A stretch of 64,000 nucleotides of DNA from a bacterium (lineage in GTDB: Bacteria > Spirochaetota > Spirochaetia > Treponematales > Treponemataceae). Below, piece after piece: positions 13,292 to 60,702 of the stretch; positions within the stretch are counted from its first letter, which is position 1, and each line of letters begins with the position of its first letter. The translations under genes were made by a program, and so were the position numbers. The stretch covers positions 2,749-66,748 of the forward strand of contig CAVJCY010000005.1 in NCBI GenBank assembly GCA_963648145.1. Reading direction: 5' to 3'. The notes under the pieces are model-generated. The model ran no database searches and was not told the origin of the DNA. It saw only the letters and a program-made list of their open reading frames with translations.

Positions 13292-13424
13292 GGGGCCAGT
13301 GCCTCGTGTAACTCGCCTTCCACAGTTCACTCACGCTCAAAGTCCTCGGCACGCAAATGGCGTGCCTGCGGTCTTTCGTTTCGTTTGCTCAAGCAAACTT
13401 CACGCCTGTTCCAGCCTCGGGCCG
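13292..13424. repeat. Multibranch structured repeat, copy A
   Basis: GGGGCCAGT...GGCACG-CAAATGG-CGTGCC...GTTTG-CTCAAG-CAAAC...CCAGCCTCGGGCCG. Aligns with copies at 18695 and 57087. Confidence 0.85.
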
Positions 13425-13445
13425 TGTTTTTCGTCCAGAAATTAA

Positions 13446-13497
13446 GAGTATCTCTAAAAAATCATTTACAATGCTTTATTTAATTTTAGAGATGCTC
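13446..13497. mobile_element. MITE, single-hairpin form
   Basis: GAGTATCTCTAAAA...TTTTAGAGATGCTC. Confidence 0.75.
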
Positions 13498-13498
13498 T

Positions 13499-14149
13499 TT
13501 ATAAAATATTTTCAATTTTTTTTAAATTTTTACAGATTTTCCAGACCATTTTTTTTACATCATCGTCCGGTTGAATTTTATCCGGCACCATAATTACTTT
13601 CATTCCTGCGTCAAAAGCACTTTTTACTCCGTTCGGGCTGTCTTCCACCGCGACACATTTTTCTGTACTAACATCAAGAGATTTACAGACCATAATGTAA
13701 ATGTCCGGAGATGGCTTACTGTGACTGACCATATCGCCAAATGTAAAAGTTTTAAAAAAATCATAAAGGCCGGCAGTCTTCATTTGTCGGCTAGCAGTAA
13801 GTTTCCGTGTAGAAGAGGCAAGTCCCAGCGGATATTTTTTACTTAAATATTCAAGAATTTCCTTTGCATAAAACATCAGTGGAATACCGTTTTTTTCTTC
13901 AATCTGATGAAAAAGTCTGGAAGTTTTGTTTAAAAAATCACTGGCTTTAAAGTCCTGTCCGTAAATTTTTTTTAAAATCAGTTCTGTATCAGTTTTATTA
14001 CAACCTCTGCACTTTTGAATGGAATTTTCAGTATTCGGAATACCAAAAATTTCACCTGCAATTTTCCAGGTTTGGTCACAAATGCTTTCAGAATCAAGCA
14101 AAACGCCGTCCATATCAAAAATTACCGCTTCTGGAATAAAGTCACTCAT
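13499..14149 (-). CDS. HAD-superfamily phosphatase (subfamily IA)
   Basis: FDMDGVLLDSE, ASST, KPSPDIY and VEDSPNG motifs. Confidence 0.9.
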   Translation of the reverse strand: MSDFIPEAVIFDMDGVLLDSESICDQTWKIAGEIFGIPNTENSIQKCRGCNKTDTELILKKIYGQDFKASDFLNKTSRLFHQIEEKNGIPLMFYAKEILEYLSKKYPLGLASSTRKLTASRQMKTAGLYDFFKTFTFGDMVSHSKPSPDIYIMVCKSLDVSTEKCVAVEDSPNGVKSAFDAGMKVIMVPDKIQPDDDVKKMVWKICKNLKKIENIL

Positions 14150-14152
14150 ATT

Positions 14153-14917
14153 TTACAACCTTACCGGAATTCCTTTTGCTGCAAGTTCTTTTTTAATTCC
14201 GGGAACAGTGTAGCCCATTGAATGAACCATGCTCGCAATCAGTGCCGCATCCGCTTTGCCTTCCGTCAAAACATCACACAAATGTTGAGGAGTTCCGCCA
14301 CCGCCACTTGCAATTACCGGAACAGGAACATTTTCTGCAACCATTTTTGTAAGAGGAATTTCATATCCAGTTTTCATGCCATCCGCATCAATTGAATTTA
14401 AAACGATTTCGCCTGCTCCCAAAGAAACAGCCCTTTTTGCCCATTCAAGAGCGTCTAAATCGGTTTTTGTACGCCCTCCGTTAATAAAAACTCTGTAACC
14501 ACTTGGCATTTGCGAATCTCGTGCGGCATCCATTCCAAGTACAATGCACTGATTTCCAAAAATTCTCGCACCTTCCGTAATTAAATCAGGATTTTTTACA
14601 GCCTGAGAATTTAAACTGACTTTTTCCGCTCCTGCAAGAATTGTGGAACGAATGTCATCAATACTACTAATTCCGCCACCAACACAAAAAGGAATAAAAA
14701 CTTCAGACGCGACGCGTGCAATAAGGTCAAGAATCGGACCACGTCCGCGCGCGCTTGCAATAATGTCATAAAAAACAAGTTCATCAACGCCCTGACGATA
14801 ATATTCCGCCGCCATTTCTACGGGATCTCCAATATCCATATTGTTCTGGAACTTTACACCTTTAGTCGTTCTTCCATCTTTTACGTCAAGACAGACAATA
14901 ATTCTTTTTTTTATCAT
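14153..14917 (-). CDS. hisF: Imidazole glycerol phosphate synthase cyclase subunit
   Basis: KRIIVCLDV, GAEKVSLNS, GAGEIVLNSIDADG and VIASGG motifs. Confidence 0.97.
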   Translation of the reverse strand: MIKKRIIVCLDVKDGRTTKGVKFQNNMDIGDPVEMAAEYYRQGVDELVFYDIIASARGRGPILDLIARVASEVFIPFCVGGGISSIDDIRSTILAGAEKVSLNSQAVKNPDLITEGARIFGNQCIVLGMDAARDSQMPSGYRVFINGGRTKTDLDALEWAKRAVSLGAGEIVLNSIDADGMKTGYEIPLTKMVAENVPVPVIASGGGGTPQHLCDVLTEGKADAALIASMVHSMGYTVPGIKKELAAKGIPVRL

Positions 14918-14928
14918 AACAAACGCTC

Positions 14929-15552
14929 TTATAACTCACAGAAATTTTTTAATATTTTTAGACCACTTTCGCCGCTTTTTTCCGGATGAAACTGACAGGC
15001 AAAAATATTTCCACTTTGAATTACTGCAGGAACTTTTATTCCGTAATCAGTGGTTGCTTTTATGACGCAGTCATCTTCAGGGCAGATAACATACGAATGA
15101 ACAAAGTAAAAATCAGCATTTTCAAGGACATTTTTTAAAATAGGGCAGTCACCATTTTTTCTCTGAAGATTATTCCAGCCAATTTGAGGAACTTTAAAAC
15201 CTTCATTTTTCATTCCCGGCCTAATATTATAAAAATACCGGATTTTTCCTTTTATAAGGCCAAGACAGTTTGTGTTGCCTTCTTCCGACCAGTCAAAAAT
15301 AATTTGCGATCCAAGACAAATTCCAAGCAACGGTTTATTTTCTTTTGTCCAGTTTTGTAAAAAATCATCAAATCTGGTGATTTTTAACTGTTCCATGGCA
15401 TAAGAAGCGTCTCCAACGCCCGGAAAAATCAGTTTTTCGCAATCTTTTAATTCTTCAGGATTTTTTGAAAGAATAAAATCAATATTAATGCTTTTTAGCG
15501 CACGTTCTACACTGGTGATGTTTCCAGCGTTGTAATCAACAATTCCTACCAT
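14929..15552 (-). CDS. hisH: Imidazole glycerol phosphate synthase glutaminase subunit
   Basis: PGVG, GICLG, YFVHSY and QFHPEKS motifs. Confidence 0.97.
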   Translation of the reverse strand: MVGIVDYNAGNITSVERALKSINIDFILSKNPEELKDCEKLIFPGVGDASYAMEQLKITRFDDFLQNWTKENKPLLGICLGSQIIFDWSEEGNTNCLGLIKGKIRYFYNIRPGMKNEGFKVPQIGWNNLQRKNGDCPILKNVLENADFYFVHSYVICPEDDCVIKATTDYGIKVPAVIQSGNIFACQFHPEKSGESGLKILKNFCEL

Positions 15553-15622
15553 ATTTAAACGATACAGTACAGAAAGATTGCTTTCAAGTCATTTTTTTTG
15601 CAACTTTGCCGATAAATACAAT

Positions 15623-15868
15623 ATGAGCAGTGATTTTAACGAAGCTTTAAAAATCGCAATGGAAGTTCTAAAAGACTGGCGGGTAATAGTTATTACAGTC
15701 GCCATGATTTTAGTAATTTCTTTTACAAAATATATAACAAGCTATCACAAAAAAAAGCCTACAAAATTCAAAAAAAAGAAAGTACCTGTACAACCGGTTG
15801 TTGCCCCTCCTTCTGATTCTGAAAAAAAATCGGAAGAAATAGAAACAGACAGTCCAGAAAATTATTAA
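15623..15868 (+). CDS. Small single-pass membrane protein, unknown function
   Basis: TM segment followed by a Lys-rich then acidic tail. ATG at 15623 preferred over the upstream TTG. Confidence 0.7.
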   Translation: MSSDFNEALKIAMEVLKDWRVIVITVAMILVISFTKYITSYHKKKPTKFKKKKVPVQPVVAPPSDSEKKSEEIETDSPENY

Positions 15869-15870
15869 AA

Positions 15871-15906
15871 GGGAACCTCTAAAAATTGCAATTTTTAGAG
15901 GTGTCT
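15871..15906. mobile_element. MITE, 36-bp minimal form
   Basis: GGGAACCTCTAAAAATTGCAATTTTTAGAGGTGTCT between convergent genes. Confidence 0.8.
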
Positions 15907-15914
15907 TTGAAAAA

Positions 15915-17561
15915 TCAGACCGTTGCAGGTGAATTTTTTACTTGCCGGTCATTTTTTTTAGAAAAATGCTTGTATTTCAGTCTGTTTTTCCACAAAAATT
16001 TGCTTACAGAAACACTTTTATTTTCTATCAGTTGATTAATTATCTGTTGGACATCCGCATGGTTCCATATTCGTTTTTTTAATAGTTTTATTGACTCTGA
16101 ATTAAATTTTTCAAAAAGATTTTCTTCAAGACTTTCTGCGTCATAATAATGCGGATTTTTTTTAATTTCCTGCAAGGCATATTCCCAATCGCTTTTGGGA
16201 TATAATTTTTTCAGTTCATTTTTGAATTTAATTTTTTTTAGCCCCCTAAAATTCTTTCCTTCTTCCAGGACTTTTCTTTTATTACAAAGATCGCAGCCAC
16301 TGCAAACCGCTTGTTCTGCCCCCAACGCATCCAAAAGAACTTGTCTCCTGCAGTCTTTTGTTTCCGCAAATTCCTTTAAGGCTGCTTTTCTTGAACCTGC
16401 CGGATAAGCAGAAAAATCGACAGAATCCTTTGGACTCCAGATTAGAATTGCTTTTGCAATGCTACCATCTCTTCCGCCGCGTCCAGCCTCTTGCAAATAT
16501 GCTTCTGCCGTGTCCGACGGTTCTAAATGCACGACAGTTTTTATATCCTTTTTATCGACTCCCATGCCGTATGCACATGTCGCGCACAAAACACCATCTT
16601 TTGAATTGTAAAACCATTTTTCTACATTTTCTTTTTCAGATTTTTCCAGTCCTGCGTGATAAAATTTAGCAGTTTCTTGTCCAAAGCATAAATTTAATTC
16701 CAAAGCCATATCTTCAGATTTGTGTCTTGTTCCACAAAAAATAATCATAGGATGCGCTTCTCTTGCCACAAGTTTCAAAGCCATTTTCTTTTTCGCGGCC
16801 GCGTTTTCAACAAAATAATGTATGTTTGCCCTGTCACTTTCGCTTCGGACAACATGCGCCTCGCCTTCAAAAAGAATTTCAGAAACTCTTGCCAGTACAG
16901 AAGGCGAGGCTGTTGCCGTAAATGCCGTTATTACCGGCGGATTAATTTTTTTTATTACTTTTCCCAAATTTAAATAACTGGGACGGAAAGAATCTCCCCA
17001 CTCGCTGACACAATGACTTTCATCAATAGCAATATGAATAATTCCCGTTTCAGCAAGCTGGTTTAAAAGGTCTTCAGATTCAAGCACTTCCGGATTCGCA
17101 AGAATAATTTTTGCACCATTCCTGATTTTTTCAAAATTTTCTTCCCGTTCTTCAGTCGACTGTCCACCTCTGAAAGTAACCGATCTCAAACTTCCTTCTT
17201 CCATTCTTCGCTGTTGATCGCTCATCAGTGCAAGCAGCGGATAAATAACTAAAGTCGGACCATCCAGCAGCAATGCCGGAACCTGAAAACACAAAGACTT
17301 CCCAGCCCCAGTAGGAAGCAGTACAATCTGCCGCCCCTTGCAAAATGAATCTTTATTTTCCGCATCCGCTTCTTTTTTTTCTTCATCCGTAAGACTTGCG
17401 TATTTTTTTTGATACTCACAGGCTTCTAGAATATTAGAAACAACTAGCCGTTGCCACGGAAACATATATCGTATTCCAAAATTTTTCCAGGCAGTTTTAG
17501 CCGCAAGATCATCAGCGTAAAGTTCATCTTCGTCGGCATCAATTCTTGTAATTTCTTCCAT
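15915..17561 (-). CDS. recQ: RecQ-family DNA helicase
   Basis: PTGAGKS, DESHCVSEWGDSFRP, TATA, QEAGRGGRDG and the CRR..CSGCDLC zinc site. Confidence 0.9.
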   Translation of the reverse strand: MEEITRIDADEDELYADDLAAKTAWKNFGIRYMFPWQRLVVSNILEACEYQKKYASLTDEEKKEADAENKDSFCKGRQIVLLPTGAGKSLCFQVPALLLDGPTLVIYPLLALMSDQQRRMEEGSLRSVTFRGGQSTEEREENFEKIRNGAKIILANPEVLESEDLLNQLAETGIIHIAIDESHCVSEWGDSFRPSYLNLGKVIKKINPPVITAFTATASPSVLARVSEILFEGEAHVVRSESDRANIHYFVENAAAKKKMALKLVAREAHPMIIFCGTRHKSEDMALELNLCFGQETAKFYHAGLEKSEKENVEKWFYNSKDGVLCATCAYGMGVDKKDIKTVVHLEPSDTAEAYLQEAGRGGRDGSIAKAILIWSPKDSVDFSAYPAGSRKAALKEFAETKDCRRQVLLDALGAEQAVCSGCDLCNKRKVLEEGKNFRGLKKIKFKNELKKLYPKSDWEYALQEIKKNPHYYDAESLEENLFEKFNSESIKLLKKRIWNHADVQQIINQLIENKSVSVSKFLWKNRLKYKHFSKKNDRQVKNSPATV

Positions 17562-17698
17562 ACTTTATTAATAGATTTGTTTTTCCATTTTTTCCGCATT
17601 TTCAGAAATTTTTTCAAAATTTATTGGATTTAAAATCATTTAAGGATATACTGATAGTACTACTATCAATACTTTTGTGATTTTTATTGGAGTTTAAA

Positions 17699-18688
17699 AT
17701 GAAAAAAATTAAAACTTTGATTTCATATGCTGCTGCATTCGTTTTTGCCACAGCCTCTTTAAGTGCCTATGAACTTCCAGAAAACTGGTCATTCTACATT
17801 GGAACAGATATGGCTTATTACCCGCTTTCTGCAAAAATTTCTGCTAATACTTATGATCACTTTGCAACAATTACTGGTCCTTACAGTGGATTAGAAGGCC
17901 GCGTTACTGCTCACGCTGATTACAAAATTACAACACCGCTTGGTTCATCATGGCTTGTAAAAAATGCAAATGTAGTTCTTGGTTCAGCATTAGAAATTTC
18001 TCCGGTTTCCGTAAAACCTCAGTTAAGCATTTCCTTTACACCGCTTCCATTTCTTGTTTTTAGCGCAGGTGCACAGGCCGGAACAGGCTGGAATTTGTTC
18101 GGTCTTCAGGGCATGGCTGCTTACAACGGTGGGGATGGTTATGAAGATTTAACTCCGTTTAAAAATTATTTTTTAAAGTGGTGGGCACAGGGAACTTTCC
18201 AGTTTGATACAGGCGCAATTTTTGCAGGCGACTGGACACACGTAGTCCTTCAGTATTCATATCAGGTTTATTACGAAGGAATTTCCGGCGTAGATAATCA
18301 GACCGTTTGGAACTGGCAGTGTTCCGGCAACAAAGTAAACGGACTTAAAAATTATCAGTGCGGAATTATTGCTTATCAGATGCCTTTAGTTTTGTACCGT
18401 GCAGGTGTTATGTTTGAACTTGACGGATATTATGATTCTGCCGTTTACGCTAATCCAGATTACTATGGCGATTTCAAACAGATTTCCATTAGTCCTTTGG
18501 TTCAACTCAAATTTAATGAACACAACACACTTTCAATACTTTTCGGATTTTCTAGTCGCCGTGCATACAAAGTTCAGACTTCTTCAAATGCTCCAGAAAT
18601 TTACGATTATACACATTCAAACAGCGTTTACACTTCTCGCGAATGGTATTTCAACAGAATTGCTTTAAGCTGGACATTCACATTCTAA
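17699..18688 (+). CDS. Putative outer-membrane beta-barrel protein
   Basis: Signal peptide, alternating aromatic strands and C-terminal WTFTF. SD GGAG before ATG 17699. Confidence 0.7.
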   Translation: MKKIKTLISYAAAFVFATASLSAYELPENWSFYIGTDMAYYPLSAKISANTYDHFATITGPYSGLEGRVTAHADYKITTPLGSSWLVKNANVVLGSALEISPVSVKPQLSISFTPLPFLVFSAGAQAGTGWNLFGLQGMAAYNGGDGYEDLTPFKNYFLKWWAQGTFQFDTGAIFAGDWTHVVLQYSYQVYYEGISGVDNQTVWNWQCSGNKVNGLKNYQCGIIAYQMPLVLYRAGVMFELDGYYDSAVYANPDYYGDFKQISISPLVQLKFNEHNTLSILFGFSSRRAYKVQTSSNAPEIYDYTHSNSVYTSREWYFNRIALSWTFTF

Positions 18689-18694
18689 AAATTT

Positions 18695-18827
18695 GGGGCC
18701 AGTACCGTGTGTAACTCGCCTTACGCAGTTTGGTAACCCTCAAACAAAAAAAGTGTGCAAATGGCACACTTTTTTTGTTTTGCTCGTTTGTTCATACAAA
18801 CTTCGCAACTGCTTCAGCCTCGGGCCG
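18695..18827. repeat. Multibranch structured repeat, copy B
   Basis: Same frame as copy A with covarying stem AAGTGTG-CAAATGG-CACACTT. Confidence 0.85.
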
Positions 18828-18879
18828 TTTTTTTGTAAAAAATATAATTTTCCGCAAAAAAGTCAGTTCAAAGTTTTTT

Positions 18880-20079
18880 TTAGTCCATAATTGTAATTTC
18901 TACGCGGCGGTTTTTTGCTCTTCCAGATTCAGTTTCATTGCTTGCAATCGGCTCTGTAGAACCTTTGCCCTGAGTAAAAATATGATATTCATCGCGCACG
19001 CCAAGAATCTGCAGATAGTCTGCAACTGCCTCTGCCCGCGATTCAGAAAGTTTTTGCCGTGCGTTTACAGTTCCCCTTTCGGCACAATGTCCTGTAATCA
19101 AAAGATCATTATTGTATTCTTTCAAAAGATTTGCAATTTTTCGTAATTTTGTTTTTTCACTTGCACGCAATTTATCAGAATCAGCTTCAAACTGAATGTT
19201 TTCAATGCTGATTGTAAGTCCTTTTTCACTTTTCTGTACAGAAACATCATCAAGTTTCATTTTTTTTATGCTTTTTTCAAGTTTTTTAAGATTTTCATCA
19301 TCATTTACAGAATGATATTCCGTAACCTTTCCTTCCGCTTCAGAAATGAACGTATAAGAATTTCCGTAAACATCATACATCTGAATCTGGAATTCTTCTG
19401 TGTAATGGTCAAGGTCGCCTTTTTTCTGGTCCCAGTAGATTTTTTGCTTTGCATAACCTTCCGCTCCGGCATAAAGACTGCCGCGGTAATAAGAATCCTG
19501 CTGTGCATCTTGAAAAATTTCGTAATAACATTCAATTACGTTCAGATTTTCTTCATCCCCAATGTAAGTATAATTTGCGCTAAAAGGAATTTTTACAGCC
19601 CGGTTCATATTAAAAAGTTCACAAAGGTCATGAACTTCTATTCCATCTGCCTGCCATGAATCCCCTGGTGCAACTTTATAATCTGGAAAACACGGAACAT
19701 TTCGCACTGTCGGCATAAAGTCATTGTCAGGGTCAATAATTTCACCGTTTTTTGTTCTGTAAGTCTGAACTGTTGTTTCTTCCTGCTTCCATTCAAGGGT
19801 AGTGCCCTGGCGTTTTTCTGTTGTCATATAATGAGTTTCAAGAAGTGCCTTGTCGTCTTTGTCTTTTTCCAGGATAGTTGTTGCAATTCTGTTGATAAAT
19901 TCAATTTTATTCACAAGACGATTATTAAAATAGGCTTCTTCGTTTACCGTTGTAATATGAACTACAGAATCACCTTTTTTTTGTTTAAACTCAAACTGAA
20001 TTTTTGAATCAGCGAAAACAAGGTTAAAAAGTCCGGCACAAAGAAAAACGAACGGCATGGTAAAATTTATTTTTTTCAT
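18880..20079 (-). CDS. OmpA C-terminal domain (peptidoglycan-binding) protein
   Basis: Signal peptide. IQFEADS, GHCA, LSESRAEAV and NRRVEI motifs. Confidence 0.9.
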   Translation of the reverse strand: MKKINFTMPFVFLCAGLFNLVFADSKIQFEFKQKKGDSVVHITTVNEEAYFNNRLVNKIEFINRIATTILEKDKDDKALLETHYMTTEKRQGTTLEWKQEETTVQTYRTKNGEIIDPDNDFMPTVRNVPCFPDYKVAPGDSWQADGIEVHDLCELFNMNRAVKIPFSANYTYIGDEENLNVIECYYEIFQDAQQDSYYRGSLYAGAEGYAKQKIYWDQKKGDLDHYTEEFQIQMYDVYGNSYTFISEAEGKVTEYHSVNDDENLKKLEKSIKKMKLDDVSVQKSEKGLTISIENIQFEADSDKLRASEKTKLRKIANLLKEYNNDLLITGHCAERGTVNARQKLSESRAEAVADYLQILGVRDEYHIFTQGKGSTEPIASNETESGRAKNRRVEITIMD

Positions 20080-20160
20080 ATAAAATATCCTTTTTCTAGA
20101 GATTTTTTTTATTATCGGGATTAGTTTTATAAAAAATCATTTTTATACGATAATAAATTT

Positions 20161-20583: not shown

Positions 20584-20627
20584 GGGTATTTCTAAAAAAA
20601 ATCATTTTCAATACTTTATTTAGAGAG
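20584..20627. mobile_element. MITE, single-hairpin form overlapping the 3' end of the EAL gene
   Basis: GGGTATTTCTAAAA..ATCATTTTCAATACTTTATTTAGAGAG directly after a TAA. Confidence 0.7.
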
Positions 20628-29401: not shown

Positions 29402-29500
29402 GGGCGTTCCCCTGCTTTTAGCAGGGTCAGGCTATCCGCACTTCCGCTGGCGCTTCAAACGCTTCGCGTTCGCCTGCGGCGGTGCTTCTATCCTTAACGC
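29402..29500. repeat. Multibranch structured repeat, compact copy G (possibly Flavo-1-like)
   Basis: GGGCGTT-CCCTGCT/AGCAGGG-TCAGGCTATCC...CTATCCTTAACGC. Confidence 0.75.
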
Positions 29501-38027: not shown

Positions 38028-38157
38028 GGGCATCTAAAGTCCCACCGGCCTTGCGCAGTTCGCTACCGCTCAAAATCCTCGGTGTGCAAATGGCACACCT
38101 GCGGGTTTCAGGAAAGTTTGTTCAAACAAACCTTCCTGCTGCTCCACGCCGGGCCCG
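38028..38157. repeat. Multibranch structured repeat, copy C
   Basis: GCAGTTCGCTACCGCTCAAA...GGTGTG-CAAATGG-CACACC...GTTTG-TTCAAA-CAAAC...CTGCTCCA. Confidence 0.85.
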
Positions 38158-38760: not shown

Positions 38761-38915
38761 GCAGTTACCAGAGTTTCCTGACTTTCTGTGCGGATTATGT
38801 CTTCCCAGTTTCCCAGTGACATTTTTATAATCCGTTTTTTTTTAGAGATGCCCTATACAGACTACAGTTGCGCATCCAGTTCAGGCTTTAGACCTGATTC
38901 CACTGAAATAACTGC
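38761..38915 (-). promoter_or_regulatory. Cobalamin riboswitch
   Basis: Minus strand: GGAATCAGGT..AAAGCCTGAACTG..GCAACTGTA..GTCACTGGGAAACTGGGAAGAC..AAGTCAGGAAAC. Closing GCAGTTA/TAACTGC. Confidence 0.9.
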
Positions 38916-43480: not shown

Positions 43481-43612
43481 GGGAACCTCTAAAAATTGCA
43501 ATTTTTAGAGATAACTCTGAAAACGCGATGTTTTAATTCATGCTATATCAACGAATTAAAACCCGCACGTTTATCTAAATAAAGCATTGAAAATGATTTT
43601 TTAGAGATGACT
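43481..43612. mobile_element. MITE, full three-hairpin form
   Basis: GGGAACCTCTAAAAA...TTTTTAGAGATGACT with TTTA/TTTA duplication. Confidence 0.9.
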
Positions 43613-45366: not shown

Positions 45367-45801
45367 ATGGCAGAAGATTCTATTAATCAAAGTATTTCAT
45401 TAGTTTCTAAAATTCATTCGCAGACGGCAGATTTTCTTGTGCAGAAGTTTAAAGAAAAAGGAATGCCGGATTTTGCATCGTCGCACGGAAATATTCTTTT
45501 TCAGTTGAGTAAAAATGAAACTATGACGATGAAAGAACTTTCGCAAAAAATTAACCGTGATAAATCTACGACGACCGTGCTGGTGCGAAAATTAATTTGC
45601 GAAGGTCTTGTAACTTCCGTGCCGGACAAAAATGACCGCCGCAGCCTGAAAATTCAACTGACCGAAAAAGGCCGTGAATACAATATTTGTACTACCCAAA
45701 TTTCTGAAGAACTGATAGAAACTTTTTATAAAAATTTTACGGAAGAAGAAAAACAGAAATTCTTTGAATTTTTAAAACGTGCCGCAGATAATTTTGCGTA
45801 A
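45367..45801 (+). CDS. MarR family regulator
   Basis: KELS..DKSTTTVLVRKL..DRRS..LTEKG motif. Confidence 0.93.
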   Translation: MAEDSINQSISLVSKIHSQTADFLVQKFKEKGMPDFASSHGNILFQLSKNETMTMKELSQKINRDKSTTTVLVRKLICEGLVTSVPDKNDRRSLKIQLTEKGREYNICTTQISEELIETFYKNFTEEEKQKFFEFLKRAADNFA

Positions 45802-45939
45802 ACGATTATGGCAGTTGTGAAGTTTCTTGCGATATTGCATTTTTAAGGAAAGCGGAAGACTGGGAAGCATCATTTATTCATTGCGGACTTTAGATGAAAG
45901 ACAGAACTGCAGAAAATCGCGACACGAAGGGGAACGCCC
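45796..45939. repeat. Degenerate multibranch repeat, copy H (reverse orientation)
   Basis: Minus strand GGGCGTTCCCC...GCAGTTC...CTGC...TTTACGC. Overlaps the marR stop. Confidence 0.55.
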
Positions 45940-49990: not shown

Positions 49991-50191
49991 GCGTAAGGGC
50001 GTGGAGCAGCGGCGAAGGTATTTTCAAATACCGAAGCCGAAGCCCGCAGGCGCAGTGCCAGGCGCCGAAGACTTTGAGCGCATAGCGAACTGCGCAAGGC
50101 CCGACCCCGGCAGGCAATTTTTACTTAAGGGCAAAAAAAATCCACAGCGAAAATTTTAATTCACTGTGGATTGCCTGCCGGGGTTACGCCC
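49991..50191. repeat. Multibranch structured repeat, copy F (reverse), carrying a terminator hairpin inside its first stem
   Basis: Minus strand GGGCGTAA-CCCCGGCAGGCAA[..]TTGCCTGCCGGGG-TCGGGC...GCCCTTACGC. Confidence 0.85.
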
Positions 50192-51942: not shown

Positions 51943-52173
51943 GTCGTGCTTCAGGCCGGGCTATTTACGCTTTGCTCACGAGTTTTGTTTTCTATTTTAC
52001 TTTTGTAAGGAAAACAAAACATCGCGCAGTTCCGCTGTTCGCTTCAAACTTTTGCGCTTAACAGTTATTTGCTTATTGTTTCGTCATCCCGGACTTGTGA
52101 GCCGGGATCTATAAAATCTTATTTCCAGTGGCAAAAGTTCGCACTTTGTGCGCTGCTACAATCCCTAAGCCGC
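51943..52173. repeat. Expanded multibranch repeat, copy I, with an embedded REP-like hairpin (52083-52110)
   Basis: CGGGCTAT...GCAGTTCCGCTGTTCGCTTCAAA...GTCATCCCGGACTTGTGAGCCGGGATCT...GCTGCTACAATCCCTAAGC. Confidence 0.65.
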
Positions 52174-52272: not shown

Positions 52273-52345
52273 TGAGCTACACTGGATTCGAACCAGTGAC
52301 CCACGCCTTAAAAGGGCGTTGCTCTACCTACTGAGCTAGTAGCCC
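52273..52345 (-). tRNA. tRNA-Lys(UUU)
   Basis: Acceptor GGGCTAC/GTAGCTC, anticodon arm ACGCC-CT TTT AA-GGCGT, GGTTCGAATCC T-arm. Confidence 0.97.
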
Positions 52346-52370: not shown

Positions 52371-52399
52371 AATATATAGAAATTGAGATTTTGTGTCAA
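52371..52399 (-). promoter_or_regulatory. sigma70 promoter of tRNA-Lys
   Basis: TTGACA-17 nt-TATATT on the minus strand. Confidence 0.8.
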
Positions 52400-52590
52400 C
52401 AGTGCAACTGCAAGTTTTTGAAAAAAAATTAATTTTTTTCAACGAAGCTGGGGACTCTATTGTAAGGGCGGCGTAGCCGGACTTGCCTAAGCGAAGTGTA
52501 AATACTGCAACACACAGGGAGTCTTGTAAAAATTTAAAAATACTGATGTTCTTTTTATTCCGACTTTAAAAAGCGTGTTATAATACTTTT

Positions 52591-54822
52591 ATGTTCAAAG
52601 CTATTTTAAGAAAGATTTTTTCAGCATGTTTTTTGTCGTTTTTGGTGTTTTCTTCTATTTCCTGTGCAGCAGGCGAACTTGAACGTAAATCTGTAAAAAT
52701 AGACACTCTATGGAAGTTTAAAGCAGGGGATAATCAAACTTACTCTTTGCCGACTTATGATGATTCTTCTTGGCAAATCAGAAATGACCTAAAAAAAATC
52801 AATTTTGACGAAATAGGAAATTATTTTTGGGTTCGTTCTACAATTTCTGTGCCGGAAGAGTTTTCTTGTAAAGATTTGTGGCTTGGTTTTAAAAAATTCA
52901 ATGCGGCGGCGGAAGTTTATGCGGACGGTGTTTATGTAGGTTCGCGCGGAAAAATGCCGCCTGCAGTAAATATCAAAATAGAAGAGGAAGATGACATTCA
53001 CATTCCGGAAAATTGTATTAAGGACGGAAAAATAAATCTTGCAATACGTTTTTATCTTCCTGGTAACAGTTTTACGGATCCTGATTTGCATCTTGATAAC
53101 GGAGACCAGGCATTTTTTCAAAATGCAGTAAAGTCGCAGTTTAATCAGAAGATTTTTATAATGCTGGCGGTTGCTTCACTCTTTTTTATTTTTTATTCGC
53201 TATTGCAGTATCTTGTTGATAACCGGGATTCTGCGTATATTTATTTCATTATAAATGTAAGTTTTATTATTTTTTACTTCCTTGATTTAGGCTCTCAGAA
53301 TCAGTTTTTCAGCAGTTATAATTTTCAGCGTTCCGTTACAAGGTGCTGTCTTGGTATTGGAATGAGTTTTATGATTCTTTTTATGAACCGCTTTTTTAAC
53401 AGAAATCACAAAAAATTTGTTACTCTTCTTACACTTGGCATTTCTGCACTTCTTTTTATTTTATTCATGGCAAATATGGGAAAAGATGCCGTTATTGACA
53501 ATCTTTTTCTTGTAGGACTTGTAGTAGTTGTTGTAACAATTGTTTACGGTTTTGTTTGTACAATACAGGCATTAAAGCGTGGTCAGAAGGGTGTTGCGCC
53601 TATTCTGATTGGTTTTATTCTTGGAACAGCGATTGCTACTCACGACATTATTTGTCAAGCTGTTGGAATTGTGCCTTTTATGTGGATTCAGGGACTTGCA
53701 TTCTTTGTTCTTGATTTTTCAATTTTTATTACACTTGCAATCAGGCAGGTTAAATCAAAGCACGATGTAAAAATTCTTGCTGACGAAACTGCAAAGCAAA
53801 AGGAAAAATTAAGTCAGATTATTGAAAATGCAAAGAAAATGGCAGATGAATCAAATCAGATTGCCGCTGCATTGAATGAATCTGTAGGAATTGTAGTAAG
53901 AACTTCTGAGCAGACTCAGGTAAAAATTAATGATATTAACGTTGCAATTGCAGAACAGACGCGCGTCAGAACAGAAACAGATAACGCTGTTCACAATCTT
54001 ACGAGCTTTCTTGATGAACTTTCGTGCGAATTTGATACTGAAACGGAAATTATTTCTAAAACTGTAAAGCAGACACAGGATGTTATTGACGGAATTACAA
54101 CGGTTGGTGAGGGAGTTTATACTGCGGCAGAATTTACAACTTCTTTAAGCAGTCTTACAAAAGAAAGCAGTGAAGAAACTAAAAAACTCATCAAGGTTAT
54201 GGATCAGGTTCAGGCTTCTTCTAATGAAATTCTAGGTGTTGTAACAACTCTTGATACTTTTGCAAATAAAATTGATTTACTTTCTATGAACGCTAGTATT
54301 GAAGCGGCTCACAGTGGCATTGCCGGTAAAGGATTTTCAGTTATTGCACATGAAATTAAGAAGCTTGCCAGTCAGACTCAGCAATGGTCCGCAAAAATTG
54401 GGGAAATTATTACAAGCGTAATCGGCTCTATTGAAGAAAGTGCACGAATGGCTAAAAAACTAGATGCTGCCCTGTCAAAAATCAACGAAGGTTCTGTAAT
54501 AAGTGCTCAGAAAGTAAATTCTGCATCTGATGGGATGAAAATTCAAAAGCAGGCCGGCGATGCAATTACCGAAGATTCTAAGATTTTGTATCAGTCTGCG
54601 GACAAAATGCAAAAAGAAGTTAAAAATCAGAGTAATTTTTCGGCACAGGTTCTTGGAAATATGGAAGCACTTTCTATTGCGTCAAATTCCGTTAATTCTG
54701 CAAGTGAAGAAATTGCAAAAGAATTTGATTCTTTAAATCAAGAAGCAAAAAAATTGAACGAACTTGCAGAACGAACTTCAATTTCTGCTCAGGAACTTTT
54801 AAAACTTATGGAAGAAGAATAA
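52591..54822 (+). CDS. Methyl-accepting chemotaxis protein with extracytoplasmic sugar-binding-like domain and about 7 TM helices
   Basis: WKFKAGD..YDDSSW jelly-roll start, about 7 hydrophobic segments, and the LLSMNASIEAAHSGIAGKGFSVIAHEIKKLA signalling hairpin. Confidence 0.88.
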   Translation: MFKAILRKIFSACFLSFLVFSSISCAAGELERKSVKIDTLWKFKAGDNQTYSLPTYDDSSWQIRNDLKKINFDEIGNYFWVRSTISVPEEFSCKDLWLGFKKFNAAAEVYADGVYVGSRGKMPPAVNIKIEEEDDIHIPENCIKDGKINLAIRFYLPGNSFTDPDLHLDNGDQAFFQNAVKSQFNQKIFIMLAVASLFFIFYSLLQYLVDNRDSAYIYFIINVSFIIFYFLDLGSQNQFFSSYNFQRSVTRCCLGIGMSFMILFMNRFFNRNHKKFVTLLTLGISALLFILFMANMGKDAVIDNLFLVGLVVVVVTIVYGFVCTIQALKRGQKGVAPILIGFILGTAIATHDIICQAVGIVPFMWIQGLAFFVLDFSIFITLAIRQVKSKHDVKILADETAKQKEKLSQIIENAKKMADESNQIAAALNESVGIVVRTSEQTQVKINDINVAIAEQTRVRTETDNAVHNLTSFLDELSCEFDTETEIISKTVKQTQDVIDGITTVGEGVYTAAEFTTSLSSLTKESSEETKKLIKVMDQVQASSNEILGVVTTLDTFANKIDLLSMNASIEAAHSGIAGKGFSVIAHEIKKLASQTQQWSAKIGEIITSVIGSIEESARMAKKLDAALSKINEGSVISAQKVNSASDGMKIQKQAGDAITEDSKILYQSADKMQKEVKNQSNFSAQVLGNMEALSIASNSVNSASEEIAKEFDSLNQEAKKLNELAERTSISAQELLKLMEEE

Positions 54823-54826
54823 AAAA

Positions 54827-54855
54827 TTTCAGGGGCAATAAAAAAGCCCCTGAAA
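54827..54855. terminator. Hairpin between convergent MCP and SRP RNA genes
   Basis: TTTCAGGGGC/GCCCCTGAAA. Confidence 0.75.
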
Positions 54856-54954
54856 GAGGCCAGATAATCTCCGGCACAAGTAAGATCTTCATACCGTTGC
54901 TTTCTTCCGAATCTAGCGGGGTTTTGAAGGATACTTTGCGGAGCATCTGACCTC
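54856..54954 (-). ncRNA. ffs: Small SRP RNA (4.5S)
   Basis: Rod GAGGTCAGAT/ATCTGGCCTC. Helix 8 AACCCCGCTAGATTC-GGAA-GAAAGCAACGGTA. TGTGCCG motif. Confidence 0.9.
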
Positions 54955-55029
54955 ATTCAGAAGCTCGTTATATATGTAAAGTAACATAAAAAATAAAATT
55001 TTACAATAAGGATATATTGTGCAACTTTA

Positions 55030-55160
55030 AAAACGCAACGTTTTAATTCGTGCTGTATCAAAGATATCTCTAAAAATTGCAATTTTTAGAGATACCCTCA
55101 ACAAATTAAAACCCGAAAGTTTCTCTAAAAAGCATTGAAAATGATTTTTCAGAGGTGTTC
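55030..55160. mobile_element. Long MITE with nested 36-bp MITE (55062-55097)
   Basis: Inner palindrome flanked by TCAA/TCAA. Removing it restores the central hairpin loop of the long form. Confidence 0.85.
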
Positions 55161-55257
55161 ATATATTTTAAAATTTTTTAAGACAAATTGTGTAATTTTT
55201 AAACTGTAGACTAAGGAAGAGCCCCTATAAAATAGGAATAATTATAGGGGAAACTTT

Positions 55258-57063
55258 ATGAAAAAGATTTTAAGGGCAGTTTTGACTGCTTTACTTTTTG
55301 CGTTTTTATTTGCATCTTGTCAGATTGATTCGGGAAGTTCTGGCAGTGGCACGGAGTCCGGCGGAAGTTCTAGTAGTAGTACTGAGTCTGGTGGCAGTTC
55401 TGAAATTACTACAACAGAAAGTGCCATTACTTATGATTGCGGTAACTTTGTAATCAAAAATAGTGGCACTTCCGTAGATTTTGTAAAAAATATGGGAATG
55501 GGCTGGAATTTGGGAAATACCCTGGACGCAACTTATTGGGAAACTTCAACCGTAGACCGCACATCTTCTACAGATATAGAAACTTGCTGGGGTATGCCAA
55601 AAACAACAGAGGCAATGATAAAAGCCGTTCACGCTGCAGGATTTAAAACTATACGTGTTCCTGTAAGCTGGCACGACCATATTTCTTCTGTTTCTGATGG
55701 AACTTACACCATTAATTCTGAATGGATGGCAAGAGTAAAGACTATTGTGGATTGGGCTTACAATGACGGAATGTGCGTTATTATAAACATTCACCATGAC
55801 AATATGCCGATTTCTACTATCAAAAATACAAAGGCTTACGGTTATGCTCTTTCTGACGATTCTGATATTCAAACAACATCAATAAATTACATAACCTCTG
55901 TCTGGAAGCAGATTGCCACGACTTTTGCTTCTTATAGCGACGCCCTTGTTTTTGAAGTTTTAAACGAACCTCGCGACAAAGACGGTGAGTGGAATGGAAA
56001 TGAATGGTGGACAAAATCTTCTGAAATGATAGACGTAATTACAAATTACGAAAATGAAGCAATTAAGGCCATTCGTTCAGTTAGTGGAAACGAAAGCCGA
56101 TATGTCATGGTGCCAGGTTATGCCGCAAGTGGTTCTGATTCCGGGGAACTTTCACTTTACACTTTCCCTACAGATTCAAATACTGATAATGGAACAAACA
56201 AACTTATTCTTTCTGCCCACGCGTATTCGCCATACAATTTTGCTATGTCTGATTTTACAGACACCACTTTTGATTCAAGCGACGCAAAAGACTTGACAAC
56301 GATTTTCAATTACCTTAAAAATAATTACGTTTCAAAGGGAATTGGCGTTGTTATGGGCGAAACTTCTGCTACTGATAAAGATAACACTGCAGAACGCGTA
56401 AAGTGGGCTAAGGATTATTATTCAAAGGCAACAGAGGCCGGAATTCCAGTTGTTTTATGGGATAACATGAACACATACGCAAGTTCTGGTGATTCAAAAT
56501 CTGGCGAAAACCACGGATATTTTAACCGTAAAACTTTAAAGTGGTACTTTCCGGACATTATAAAGGCAATGGGCAGCCAGGTTTATGATGATTATGCAGA
56601 AAAAGTTTTAATTGACAGCGAAACTTCAACTGATACTGATGATTCTGGAACGAGCGGAGATTCTGGCAGTTCAAGTTCTGAAGATTTTGATGATTCTGCA
56701 AAGACTTTGACTTCGCTTTTTTCTGGAACATACGAACTTTCTTGGGGAACAAATAAAACTTTGGAAGCGAGCCTTTTTTCTAATGCAGATGAAAATTCTT
56801 ATTTAAAATTTGAATCAACGGCCACCACTTCTTACACGGCAGATTATGTAAACTTAAAATTACAGGCAGGTGACTGGTCAACAGTCTTTTGTAATGGAAC
56901 ATGTAAAGGCGGAAGTACAGGAAACGAGGTCTTGGAGCCGACATCGGCGGAAGGAACATTATATTACAAGCCTGCAAGTTCTGAGTGGACAGAAATTAAA
57001 TCTAAAGGAATGATAGTTTACGGTTATGGAATGACAGTCACTGCCATAAGTATTGCTTACTAA
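55258..57063 (+). CDS. GH5 endoglucanase lipoprotein (GH5_4-like) with C-terminal CBM-like domain
   Basis: Lipobox FASC, Ser/Gly linker, GWNLGNTLDA, IRVPVSW, NIHHD, NEP, HAY, MGET and WDN motifs. Confidence 0.93.
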   Translation: MKKILRAVLTALLFAFLFASCQIDSGSSGSGTESGGSSSSSTESGGSSEITTTESAITYDCGNFVIKNSGTSVDFVKNMGMGWNLGNTLDATYWETSTVDRTSSTDIETCWGMPKTTEAMIKAVHAAGFKTIRVPVSWHDHISSVSDGTYTINSEWMARVKTIVDWAYNDGMCVIINIHHDNMPISTIKNTKAYGYALSDDSDIQTTSINYITSVWKQIATTFASYSDALVFEVLNEPRDKDGEWNGNEWWTKSSEMIDVITNYENEAIKAIRSVSGNESRYVMVPGYAASGSDSGELSLYTFPTDSNTDNGTNKLILSAHAYSPYNFAMSDFTDTTFDSSDAKDLTTIFNYLKNNYVSKGIGVVMGETSATDKDNTAERVKWAKDYYSKATEAGIPVVLWDNMNTYASSGDSKSGENHGYFNRKTLKWYFPDIIKAMGSQVYDDYAEKVLIDSETSTDTDDSGTSGDSGSSSSEDFDDSAKTLTSLFSGTYELSWGTNKTLEASLFSNADENSYLKFESTATTSYTADYVNLKLQAGDWSTVFCNGTCKGGSTGNEVLEPTSAEGTLYYKPASSEWTEIKSKGMIVYGYGMTVTAISIAY

Positions 57064-57086
57064 AAGTAATTTTTTTACCTGAAAGC

Positions 57087-57219
57087 CGGCCCGAGGCTGG
57101 AGCAGACGCGAAGGTTGTTTGAACAACCGAGCGGAACAAAAAAGACGTGCTGTTTGCGCGTCTTTTTTGTTTGAGGGCTACCGAACTGCGGAAGGCGAGT
57201 TGGAACGATGCACTGGCCC
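57087..57219. repeat. Multibranch structured repeat, copy D (reverse)
   Basis: Reverse complement aligns end to end with copies A and B. Stems covary (GGTTG/CAACC). Confidence 0.85.
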
Positions 57220-57287
57220 AAAATTCTAAAAAAATCTTTTGAATTGTGGAATTTAAAATAAATTGCGTTTGTTGTATACTTTTGAAT

Positions 57288-58469
57288 ATGGAAAAATTAA
57301 TTTTAAACAACTACGGAAGTTTTGACGTTGAATTTGTGAAGGGTAAAGGCGCCATGATGTGGGATGCCAGCGGTAAAAAGTACATTGATTTTATTGCCGG
57401 CATTGGTGTTAATTGTCTTGGTCATAATTATAAACCTTTGGTTCGTGCGGTGCAAAAACAGGCGGCGCGGCAAATTCATATTTCAAATTATTATTTTTCG
57501 GATGTTGGATTAAAATTTGCAAAGGCTTTGCTGGAAATTACTGGTTTTGAAAAAGGATATTTTGGAAATTCCGGGGCGGAGGCTAACGAAGCGGCACTGA
57601 AACTTGCCCGAAAGTACGGTTATTTGAATGGCGGAGAAAAACGACGCACGATTGTGACGCTGAAAAATTCTTTTCACGGAAGAACTCTTGCCACTTTGAC
57701 TGCAACTGGTCAGGATAGATTTCACCCGGATTGTTTTGCGCCTTATGCGGAAGGTTTTAAAACTATTGAAGCAAATGATTTTGAAGCTTTAAAGACTGCT
57801 TTTGATGATACAACTGCGGCTCTTTTTATTGAATGTATTCAGGGCGAAGGCGGAGTAAATCTGATTAGTAAGGAATGGGTACAGGCTGCGGCAAAAGCAG
57901 CACGCAATGCAGGTGCAATTGTTATGGCGGACGAAGTTCAAACAGGTGTTGGCCGTACAGGTGCTTATCTTGCAAGTGACTATCTTGGATTTGAACCGGA
58001 AGTTGTGACTTTGGCAAAGGGAATTGCCGGTGGTTTGCCAATGGGTGCTTGTCTTTTCCGTGGCAAGGTAGCAGATGTTTTTGTTGCGGGCGACCATCAG
58101 TCAACTTTTGCTGGAAATCCCTTGGTTTGTGCAGCAGGGCTTGAAGTTATTAATGCTTTAACGACTCCTGGATTTTATGACAGAGTAAATCACGCCGGAG
58201 ATTATATGCGCGGTCAGATTTCTTCCTGGAATTTGCCGATTGTAAAAGATGTGCGCGGACGGGGGCTTATGATTGGAACTCAGATTGCGCCTGAAATTAA
58301 ACCTTTTGACATTGAACTGCGCTGTTTGGAAAAAGGACTTTGTACTACGACCGCCGGTAAAGATGTAATAAGATTTTTGCCACCACTCACAATTTCAGAC
58401 AAAGAAATTGCAGAAGGTCTTGCGATTTATAAGGAAGTTTTAGAAGAATTCTGTAAAAGTTGCCTCTAA
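57288..58469 (+). CDS. argD: Acetylornithine aminotransferase
   Basis: NSGAEANEAA, SFHGRT, QGEGG, DEVQTG and TLAKG motifs. ATG 57288 preferred. Confidence 0.92.
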   Translation: MEKLILNNYGSFDVEFVKGKGAMMWDASGKKYIDFIAGIGVNCLGHNYKPLVRAVQKQAARQIHISNYYFSDVGLKFAKALLEITGFEKGYFGNSGAEANEAALKLARKYGYLNGGEKRRTIVTLKNSFHGRTLATLTATGQDRFHPDCFAPYAEGFKTIEANDFEALKTAFDDTTAALFIECIQGEGGVNLISKEWVQAAAKAARNAGAIVMADEVQTGVGRTGAYLASDYLGFEPEVVTLAKGIAGGLPMGACLFRGKVADVFVAGDHQSTFAGNPLVCAAGLEVINALTTPGFYDRVNHAGDYMRGQISSWNLPIVKDVRGRGLMIGTQIAPEIKPFDIELRCLEKGLCTTTAGKDVIRFLPPLTISDKEIAEGLAIYKEVLEEFCKSCL

Positions 58470-58499
58470 AAAAAATTGTTCCGTGTATTCCTCCACGAA

Positions 58500-58542
58500 A
58501 AAAAATCCTCCGTGCCACAAAAAATGGTACGGAGGATTTTTT
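58500..58542. terminator. Bidirectional terminator
   Basis: AAAAATCCTCCGTGCCA...TGGTACGGAGGATTTTT. Confidence 0.8.
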
Positions 58543-58560
58543 TATGTTTTTTTACAAAAC

Positions 58561-60453
58561 TTATAGCGCGCCGTCAGCAGGACCGTAATAGAATGAAACT
58601 TCGTAAGTTTTCATTGCAGAAAAGACAACAGCCCCTTTGTCAAAAATGCAGGCACCACAGCCTTCAGTTGAACCGTCTACAGTGCGCACACCGGCCGGGA
58701 TATTTGTTACCCATTCGTTGTAAAGATTTGCACGGGTAGTGTTATTGCCGTCGCTGGTAGTGTAGTTTTTCTTTGTCAGAGGAATTTCCTTGTCATTAAC
58801 CTTTATTGACCTGATTTGAATAATCCAGTCCGGGTGCAGAGCTTCGCCGTTCGCAATCCCTAGTGCAGAAAAAGAAACACCGTTCGCCTTGCCCATGCCG
58901 TTGGCTTTCATTGTAGAAAAATCAAGTTTTACAGAATATTCGCCAGGTTTTTCAATTGCAGTATCGGTTGCAGTCAAATCTTTTGATTTTGAAGAAGGTT
59001 TGTATTCATCACCAACCGAATAATTTACACCCCAGGAAGAATCAGCGTACATCAGATAGGCAATCGCAATGTCCTTACGACCTTCCAGACTATTGCCCGT
59101 TAAAGAAGTCGGGGCATCTTTATAAGCCTTTGCAAAACGCTGATGAGCAGATTCCTTTACGATAGAAGGATTAACCGAATCTTCAAAAGTGAATGCGTGC
59201 GAAAGATAAAGTTTTGCAAAATCTTCGTTAATTAATTTTGCCTTTGATTTATCGTAATAACAGGCAGTTCCTGTATCCCACAAAACAGGACAGAAACCAT
59301 AATAATCACATTCATCAAGGAAAAGAGAGTGATAAAAGTTCGTGGCAGTTTTAAAATCAGGATTTGGAAGAACACCGTATTCGCCAATTACAACACCAAC
59401 ACTTTCATCAACGGTAAAACGAGTAAGCAGTTTGAGCGTAGTGTCCATATCGCCAATATCGCCTTTAGAGCCCCAATCATCGCCCTTGCCAATACAAAGA
59501 GGAGAAGGATCATAATAATGAACTGAAACAATCAGTTTGTCTTGAGCAGAATCCTTAGGCAACTGCCATCTGCTGTCTACAGTTTTGCGCACATCTGTGT
59601 TATATCCCGGAATAAGAAGATAACGTTCAGAATTGTTACCGCCGGTAGACCGTACAGTGTCCACAAAAATCTGATTTATCATATTCGCAGTAGTGTAGAG
59701 TTCTTCCCTAGAAAGATAACCACTGTTCCAGCATGAACGGGTATCGTTTAAGGAATCCCCAGTTTCTTCGTTACCGCCTTCAAAAATCAAATATTCATCA
59801 TAATTTTTAAAACGGTTTGCAATCTGAATCCACATTGCCTTATAAAGTTCCTTTGCACTTTCGCGGATTTCTTCAGTCCAGGAACCAAACATTCCCCACC
59901 AGGCACCATCCCAGTGATCATTTATAATAACGTACATTCCTTCATCAAGAGCCCAGCCGACAATAGTTTCAACCCGGTCAAGATAAGAAGAATTAATCAC
60001 ATAATCGCCCGAATCATAAGCCATGGCATTAGTCCAGGCAACCGGAATTCGCAGAGTGTCAAAACCAGCTTCAACGTACCCCTGAATCATCTTCTGAGTA
60101 GTTACAGGCTGCCCCCAAAGCTGTTCATAATAAGTAGCATCGCGGTTAACCATAGCGGCACTTGAACGATACGCTTCCATAGTATTACCAAGATTAATAC
60201 CATTACCCATAAGACGTGTAATTTCTATAGAAGAAGCACTGCCGTCAAATTCCATCGGCTCAGTAAGAATCTTGCTGGAAGAATCAGGAATTTCCACGTG
60301 TTTAGAAACCATAACCCGCGGAGACAAATCTTTTGTACTAAGATTTCTGCCGTCCGCATCAGTTTTTACAACATCCGTTTTTGCATTAGAAGCACAGCCC
60401 GCCAAAAGCACAGCCAAAATGCCCATAACCAGAATAATTTTACCTTTTTTCAT
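58561..60453 (-). CDS. GH5 glycoside hydrolase lipoprotein with C-terminal beta-sandwich domain
   Basis: Lipobox LAGC. GINLGNTMEA, LRIPVAW, NDHWD, NEE, HYY, IGEYG and LWD motifs. Confidence 0.92.
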   Translation of the reverse strand: MKKGKIILVMGILAVLLAGCASNAKTDVVKTDADGRNLSTKDLSPRVMVSKHVEIPDSSSKILTEPMEFDGSASSIEITRLMGNGINLGNTMEAYRSSAAMVNRDATYYEQLWGQPVTTQKMIQGYVEAGFDTLRIPVAWTNAMAYDSGDYVINSSYLDRVETIVGWALDEGMYVIINDHWDGAWWGMFGSWTEEIRESAKELYKAMWIQIANRFKNYDEYLIFEGGNEETGDSLNDTRSCWNSGYLSREELYTTANMINQIFVDTVRSTGGNNSERYLLIPGYNTDVRKTVDSRWQLPKDSAQDKLIVSVHYYDPSPLCIGKGDDWGSKGDIGDMDTTLKLLTRFTVDESVGVVIGEYGVLPNPDFKTATNFYHSLFLDECDYYGFCPVLWDTGTACYYDKSKAKLINEDFAKLYLSHAFTFEDSVNPSIVKESAHQRFAKAYKDAPTSLTGNSLEGRKDIAIAYLMYADSSWGVNYSVGDEYKPSSKSKDLTATDTAIEKPGEYSVKLDFSTMKANGMGKANGVSFSALGIANGEALHPDWIIQIRSIKVNDKEIPLTKKNYTTSDGNNTTRANLYNEWVTNIPAGVRTVDGSTEGCGACIFDKGAVVFSAMKTYEVSFYYGPADGAL

Positions 60454-60566
60454 AAAACCCCTTTTTACAGAAGCGATTTTTCACTTCCCATAAAAATTCT
60501 GAGCCAAACTACCAAAAATAAAATATAAAATTTTATAGATTTTAATGTGATTTTTAGCATTCATAA

Positions 60567-60702
60567 GGGCGTTCCGGCTAAAGCCGTCGGGCGTTCCACA
60601 CTTCCGCTGCCGCTTCAAAATCCTCAGCACGCAAATAGCGTGCTTCCGGGTTTCCGCTTCGTTTGTTGAAACAAACTTCGCGGGTGTTCCATGCCCTAAC
60701 GC
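60567..60702. repeat. Multibranch structured repeat, copy E
   Basis: GGGCGTT..GTCGGGC..AGCACG-CAAATAG-CGTGCT..GTTTG-TTGAAA-CAAAC..GCCCTAACGC. Confidence 0.85.

Follow-up and report, generated by a model that had tools for sequence, protein, structure and literature searches.

What is the structured sequence that recurs at nine places in a 64,000-nucleotide stretch of a Treponemataceae genome (assembly GCA_963648145.1, contig CAVJCY010000005.1, positions 2,749 to 66,748; hereafter the window), and does it act as DNA or as RNA? A first-pass annotation of the window had described a dispersed family of covarying multibranch elements, either mobile or a multi-copy RNA, and had noted a likeness to the Flavo-1 motif (RF01705). 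Here we report evidence that recasts Flavo-1 as a folded single-stranded DNA (ssDNA) element of mobile DNA and the treponeme family as a new Flavo-1 variant. The reading that we prefer, tentatively and with a little less than even confidence, is that of a folded-ssDNA signal of the Flavo-1 lineage, of the single-strand initiation type, that was amplified in the chromosome and reshuffled by gene conversion. New relative to the first-pass annotation are the in-place exchange of modules between copies and the homologs that plasmids and ssDNA phages carry at conserved positions.

Iterated nhmmer profiles detected 119 copies of a form that we call type 1 and 144 copies of other subtypes in the source genome (G000; 2.96 Mb in 164 contigs, 99.9% complete; the window is C5:2749-66748 in our contig numbering). 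Merging two iterated profiles (E<=1e-4) gave 269 copies genome-wide, and the reversed genome, used as a control, gave 0 profile matches. By its proteins, the source organism resembles a gut treponeme. The family is therefore dispersed, as had been claimed, but far larger than the nine or so copies first counted. All nine (copies A to I by position) are real, every start coordinate being an element end, and the hairpin variants quoted for them are present and paired. The profiles missed or split copies of one more subtype, whose apex is different (C7:35872, C14:32784, C24:18632 and C112:983-1222). Across the genus, a 16-base end pattern is present in 294 of 338 genomes, with reversed-pattern controls giving 0-2 matches per strand; copy number by end-pattern matches ranges from 0 to 128, and the top counts belong to a related genome, G089 (128), and to the source genome (110).

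That the family folds, and is strongly structured, is well supported. On the folding strand, named the GNA strand after its loops (N, any base), the base of the element is closed by helix P1 and continues into a three-way junction, from which the variable side hairpin P2 branches off; helix P3 bears an A.G mismatch, and beyond it come an internal loop of the GNA/GNA type and helix P4; the 3' end reads CC-NN-A, with the terminal A present in 94% (n=103). The apex of type 1 is a four-way junction formed with P5, P6 and a small P7, where P5 carries a GAA/GAA loop plus hairpin 2, and P6 a C.A pair, a GCA/GA loop and hairpin 1. Other subtypes have one arm cut down to a GAA triloop, or 50-150 nt of cargo. 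Watson-Crick pairing is found in 3224 of 3518 helix cells of the type 1 copies, and the top pairs by mutual information (with average product correction) each occur as three or four Watson-Crick types among the 119 copies, a very strong covariation that bears out the selection on structure proposed earlier. Cargo hairpins are indeed accepted, e.g., in P2 of copy F and the apex of copy G. The element ends are sharp, with a T-rich 5' flank in end logos, and the flanks are A/T-rich.

The loops indicate which strand folds. Among the 269 copies, GNA triloops number 200 on the folding strand versus 46 on the other, 153 being closed by C-G, and GNA/GNA internal loops number 143 versus 6; of 713 C-GNA-G sites, 272 pair in the triloop register and 113 in the UNCG register. 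The minimum free energy prefers the GNA strand in 109 of the 119 type 1 copies with DNA parameters and in 96 with RNA parameters. Mismatches on this strand, counted without three conserved mismatch columns, are G.T rather than A.C (78 vs 43) and G.A rather than C.T (93 vs 15). The comparison of G.U with A.C suggested in the first-pass annotation thus picks the strand opposite to the one written there: its GNA/GA loops are real, but the folding strand runs against its orientation. GNA hairpins and sheared G.A zippers are described as DNA motifs (PMC11014236). DNA-type motifs dominate one strand, in agreement with the folded-ssDNA possibility raised at the outset, and the element likely acts as DNA. 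The STAXI motif was judged to be RNA from its UUCG loops (PMC2864571); the reverse complement of these is a GAA-type DNA loop, which makes STAXI another possible ssDNA element.

The relation to Flavo-1 lies in the base. An Rfam scan of the window, at the gathering threshold and at E<=10, placed no family on any copy, and RF01705 gave one hit in the source genome, on the GNA strand of a short copy, at 32.9 bits (below the gathering threshold of 42). The Flavo-1 seed rows (PMC2864571, supplement) share with the element the helices of the base, the A.G mismatch and the GNA/GNA loop, all on the same strand, and phage homologs of the element reach the Rfam Flavo-1 cut-off in 4 of 20 scanned loci. 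The apex differs, being a single stem-loop in Flavo-1, a modular four-way junction in treponeme type 1 and variable in the other subtypes. The suggested resemblance thus extends to the basal frame and strand, however with a score below threshold. Because the base is shared but the score is under the cut-off, we regard the family as a Flavo-1-lineage variant and not a formal member. Flavo-1 has been without an assigned function since 2010 and is filed in Rfam as a small RNA of unknown function, unlike the treponeme family with its about 270 copies in one genome; in Flavobacterium psychrophilum, Flavo-1 matches are sense or antisense without distinction, and many are untranscribed (PMC9723704). 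No literature linking Flavo-1 to ssDNA, plasmids or a DNA role was found, in a search that covers subscription papers poorly, and a DNA role was not seen in the available main text of Weinberg 2010, whose Additional File 1 may discuss strand or DNA.

Searches of plasmids matched those of Bacteroidales, Moraxella, Vibrio, Shewanella and Acinetobacter, and in conjugative plasmids the frame stands in regions of the leading type. A model, R2, built from 41 phage, integrative and conjugative element (ICE) and treponeme copies, whose basal frame shows 54 double changes versus 9.1 after shuffling, gave 19 matches in 15 plasmid and phage loci. In the F plasmid, both units lie on the transferred strand (T-strand), before ssb and before the next leading operon, each ~90 nt 3' of the ssiD/Frpo repeat (distance judged by eye; repeat from the supplement of PMC11541004); Rfam has no annotation at the F unit. 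All copies within a plasmid occupy one strand (F, 2; Shewanella, 3; M. bovoculi, 4; Acinetobacter, 2; pMMCAT, 2), and the GNA strand is the template of nearby ArdA, ArdC or ssb-type genes, two loci (L380 and L382) having no such gene 5'. Immediately 5' of the unit is an Frpo-like hairpin in F, Shewanella, Vibrio and Moraxella, and the unit's distance to gene starts is 250-470 nt. The F unit is found in 4072 of 72,556 plasmid records, 3100 of them conjugative, and by its presence in thousands of enterobacterial plasmids it may bear on the conversion and establishment of incoming plasmid strands. A homolog beside Frpo in F, the best-studied plasmid, makes the Flavo-1 question testable in E. coli K-12.

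Two known ssDNA structures invite comparison. Like Frpo/ssiD of F (PMC9849209, PMC11541004), the F unit is folded on the leading-region T-strand, inside the same duplicated repeat; unlike Frpo/ssiD, it begins ~90 nt past the published ssiD fragment, and inspection by eye for -35/-10 boxes of the Frpo type gave one TTGACA in locus L208 and none in the consensus. To the primosome assembly site (pas) of phiX174 (PMC5778457) the resemblance is one of architecture alone: there, a stem interrupted by a GAA/TGA internal loop precedes a GCGAAGC minihairpin, but a three-way base is absent.

In phages, three viral scans found the full frame in 20 of 55, 14 of 14 and 16 of 80 loci; the first also gave an alphaproteobacterial-type variant, and the permissive pattern of the third yielded mostly chance matches, four loci (L298, L318, L323 and L245) being added by eye beyond its 16. 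The GNA strand is the core-gene sense strand in all 5 inovirus-like loci and in 5 of the 7 microvirus loci, where L171, L209, L298 and L318 were assigned to their phage class by resemblance only. The core-gene sense strand of inoviruses and microviruses is the virion strand. At 15 distinct loci (L178, L183, L195, L201, L213, L218, L222, L223, L230, L233, L234, L247, L282, L286 and L291) the element lies just 3' of a gene for a terminase-like ATPase of 500-570 aa, always on its template strand. The ATPase, named by resemblance (no Pfam, PHROG or PDB match among those tested), is widespread in Bacteroidota-type phages, and the element after it often comes with an ArdC or DUF932 cassette; ArdC is downstream of the element in 6 viral or ICE loci, including Bacteroides elements. 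A variant with its own apex occurs in GC-rich temperate phages (L174, L179, L186, L189, L191, L192, L210, L211 and L219), where it often overlaps small open reading frames (ORFs) near the integrase. BLAST of L208 against phages and of L218 against plasmids found nothing.

How the chromosomal copies evolve was examined in 42 orthologous type 1 pairs; the comparison covered 1.56 Mb of the 2.8-Mb G089 genome and 20 kb of another genome of the genus, G167. The 1158 base pairs of these orthologs show 83 double changes (71 from one Watson-Crick pair to another) and 69 single changes, with 11.9 doubles expected. Divergence is 2.7% in the basal columns, where the loop G and A are almost invariant, 16% in the hairpin-1 module and 12.9% at third codon positions; for whole copies it is 8.5%, versus 7.5% in flanking intergenic DNA. 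Changed modules are nearer to a paralog than to the ortholog in 13 of 13 cases for hairpin 2 and 14 of 14 for the hairpin-1 stem, and nearer to paralogs than are simulated compensatory changes (p=0.002 and p=6e-8, respectively). Distances of different modules across copies are nearly uncorrelated (rho -0.09 to 0.23), and the subtype has been switched in place at some loci, with varying boundaries. Because the changed modules are paralog-like, the distances uncorrelated and the boundaries variable, we favor gene conversion between copies, anchored in the base, over a site-specific swap. Sequence comparison thus points to an exchange of apical hairpins in place with paralogs by gene conversion, and the chromosomal family offers a rare natural experiment in which hundreds of fixed copies trade hairpin modules and keep non-canonical DNA motifs.

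Transcription does not explain the orientation of the element, because the GNA strand is sense in ssDNA phages and antisense in plasmids. A single variable accounts for how the element is oriented in plasmids and most ssDNA phages, namely which strand is single at entry. Under the folded-ssDNA initiation reading, the element of plasmids, ICEs and ssDNA phages would sit on whichever strand arrives in the cell as ssDNA, and its fork-like fold would let host restart or priming proteins of the PriA type start the complementary strand; this priming role we infer. A PriA gene is present in the source genome, and a constant base under a freely varying apex would suit recognition of the junction by a protein. 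A long-ago amplification, by a presumed route, would have left about 270 intergenic copies in the chromosome, which would then have been fixed in place, their apical hairpins being swapped by conversion anchored in the conserved base.

A number of observations weigh against this reading. Relative to the relaxase or coupling-protein genes, the GNA strand is the opposite one in 5 of 9 plasmids and the same one in the other 4 (pMMCAT, Shewanella pS18501, Vibrio pvh2 and pTJ187-2, in which oriT is unmapped). R2 finds nothing in the F-G region of phiX174, which we take to be the pas, in ColE1, in ColIb-P9 (1-48 kb) or in R46; the unit is accordingly not a known pas, and some Frpo-type regions do without it. 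Two microvirus loci (L173 and L298) are oriented oppositely, three of the five concordant ones represent one clade, and many double-stranded DNA (dsDNA) phage loci carry the element. Some loop statistics lean to RNA: 89 of 110 GNNA tetraloops are GNRA, and the other strand would have G.U in place of the conserved C.A pair (73 of 118) and carries 30 cUNCGg loops in the 269 copies. With crude ORF calls, the GNA strand is sense in 84 codirectional gaps and antisense in 46 (263 copies, the remainder being 59 divergent, 46 convergent and 28 at edges). Replication-strand bias in the source genome is not clear, with 80 versus 66 copies on the G-rich strand (n=146); an apparent replichore bias in a further genome, G204, was discarded as a listing artefact. 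Finally, an amplifying enzyme was not found in the source genome. We consider doubtful the broader joint claim that Flavo-1 is a widespread unrecognised ssDNA initiation signal, present in F-type and other conjugative plasmids, ICEs, inoviruses and microviruses of at least four phyla, and in addition a protein-free selfish replicator in some treponemes; as such a replicator, it would load the host restart machinery to make local extra copies, which would seed new sites and swap modules.

The positions in plasmids would also suit an accessory of single-stranded promoters, in which the folded ssDNA serves as a roadblock or a protein-landing structure before Frpo-like hairpins and the chromosomal copies are passengers. 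Besides the units directly 3' of such hairpins in F, Shewanella, Vibrio and Moraxella, a stem-loop roadblock has been reported at ssp2 in F (bioRxiv 10.64898/2026.01.09.698686). The published ssp2 stall was, however, mapped to the promoter stem itself, a roadblock in ssDNA phages would be costly, and Frpo-like neighbours were neither noted at the chromosomal copies, with their A/T-rich flanks, nor sought in ssDNA phages; we judge this alternative unlikely.

A non-autonomous element resembling repetitive extragenic palindromic (REP) sequences or miniature inverted-repeat transposable elements (MITEs), mobilised by an HUH or other ssDNA enzyme encoded at an unlinked site and taken by mobile elements from their hosts, would account for the sharp ends without target duplication, the range of copy number across the genus and the occurrence in restriction-modification islands of low-copy genomes. 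Mobilisation by an HUH (Y1/RAYT) enzyme or a reverse transcriptase, as the first-pass annotation had proposed, found no backing. The source genome has no Y1 transposase gene (PF01797); no full copy adjoins any of 50 Y1 loci of the genus, which gave one partial match at 17.5 bits, and 36 of these loci rescanned with R2 gave no match. Among ten genomes with at least 40 pattern matches, of which not all were sampled, G160 alone is among the sampled Y1 positives. Searches for reverse transcriptases and tyrosine recombinases in the source genome linked no enzyme to the copies: the two reverse transcriptases (L003 on C92 and L004 on C111) look like those of diversity-generating retroelements, judged by neighbouring genes, and one of four tyrosine recombinases has a copy nearby. 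A GIY-YIG enzyme was also considered as mobiliser and rejected, the lone match in the source genome falling in a 677-aa frame that is probably UvrC. Unpaired half-elements possibly flanking an ORF are absent from the source genome.

Comparison with relatives likewise speaks for old and static copies and not for the active mobility once suggested. G089 is 89-97% identical to segments of the window. Of the 269 copies, 159 have no mappable ortholog in G089 or G167, 98 are shared and 12 are absent; in the reverse comparison of 175 copies, 98 are shared and 9 absent. We conclude that the copies are old and static because 98 of 110 mappable sites are shared with a close relative. The absent sites are mostly internal deletions that leave stumps, or subtypes unseen by the profiles; about 1 near-clean empty site occurs among 21 differing sites, none were found within the source genome, and no target-site duplication was seen. 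Copies are not enriched at synteny breaks (15/103 vs 32/136 plain gaps, p=0.10) and are therefore not gene-gain hotspots. REP and REPIN sequences are likewise dispersed folded intergenic repeats, often right after stop codons (Quentin 2018, PMC6006769), but the treponeme copies have no GTAG foot, are seldom paired, lack a linked tnpA and are multibranched rather than single hairpins; the subclass 2.6 REPs of the same paper are also unlike the element. The copies lack the MITE hallmarks of target duplication and clean empty sites, and differ from integron attC sites in being scattered both ways among core genes with no co-oriented array. As the fixed strand and position in unrelated plasmids further argue for a function, a REP- or MITE-like origin appears improbable. 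Twelve further genomes of the genus, most of them low-copy, contributed 20 loci (L360-L379), at which the element is often in accessory islands, with restriction-modification genes adjacent in 6 of 17 Pfam-scanned loci, three of them inside type I operons.

The Rfam view of Flavo-1, i.e., a multi-copy structured RNA acting as a transcript stabiliser, processing site or protein-binding element, draws on the sense excess in codirectional gaps, the GNRA tetraloops and the opposite-strand cUNCGg loops noted above. It is quite improbable given that orientation to transcription is reversed between ssDNA phages and plasmids or dsDNA phages, that GNA triloops and GNA/GNA loops prevail, and that the F. 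psychrophilum matches are strand-indifferent and often untranscribed. A mutational by-product, in which decaying repeats without a function have their inverted repeats perfected by template switching, would fit the divergence of copies near that of flanking DNA and the decay of many copies by deletion, but is very improbable in view of the retained mismatches and internal loops, the nearly constant basal-loop G and A, the match of changed modules to paralogs and the replacement of whole subtypes in place.

Within the window, copies A (13292..13424), B (18695..18827), C (29402..29500), D (38028..38157), G (51943..52173) and I (60567..60702) fold on the minus strand, and copies E (45796..45939), F (49991..50191) and H (57087..57219) on the plus strand. 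Copy A is of type 1 with the four-way apex; copy B, of type 1 with an A/T-rich hairpin-1 arm, begins 7 nt past a stop codon, and both sites are common to G089. Copy C, the short form nearest to Flavo-1, scores 52.9 bits with R2, in whose training set it is included, and contains GCGAAGC (at 29461, minus strand), which the first-pass annotation had assigned to a copy G but which is not in the seventh copy by position. Copy D, of type 1, has its counterpart beside a conserved flank in G089. The original copy list needs qualification at two entries: copy E is a degenerate type 1, deleted in G089 save a 5' stump, and copy G extends over its full span by way of two large inserts, in the apex and between P4 and P3, a stump remaining in G089. 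Copy F, of type 1 with a long cargo hairpin in P2, is shared with G167; the G089 site orthologous to copy H, of type 1, has another hairpin-1 module variant; and copy I, of type 1 and top-scoring in the window, has 32.6 bits with R2, outside the training set. The cargo of copy G is palindromic (52040-52100), with similar cargo in G089 (L144), and presumably resembles CGTC-tagged REPs. The flank of copy I (60703-60850) is itself repeated at C1 and C120. The minus strand of the window also encodes a cobalamin riboswitch (38773-38901), a tRNA (52273-52345) and the signal recognition particle RNA (54855-54952).

Another high-copy repeat, ~134 bp long, is bounded by inverted repeats and has a palindrome of 24 bp inside it; it is present at 13447, 43481-43612 and 55062-55097 among other positions of the window, and genome-wide it gives 255 exact palindromes and 942 end matches. 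It sits within hairpin 2 of Flavo-like copies at C32:24413-24724 and C1:55597-55789, and because it is inserted there it is younger than these copies; it frequently differs between the source genome and G089.

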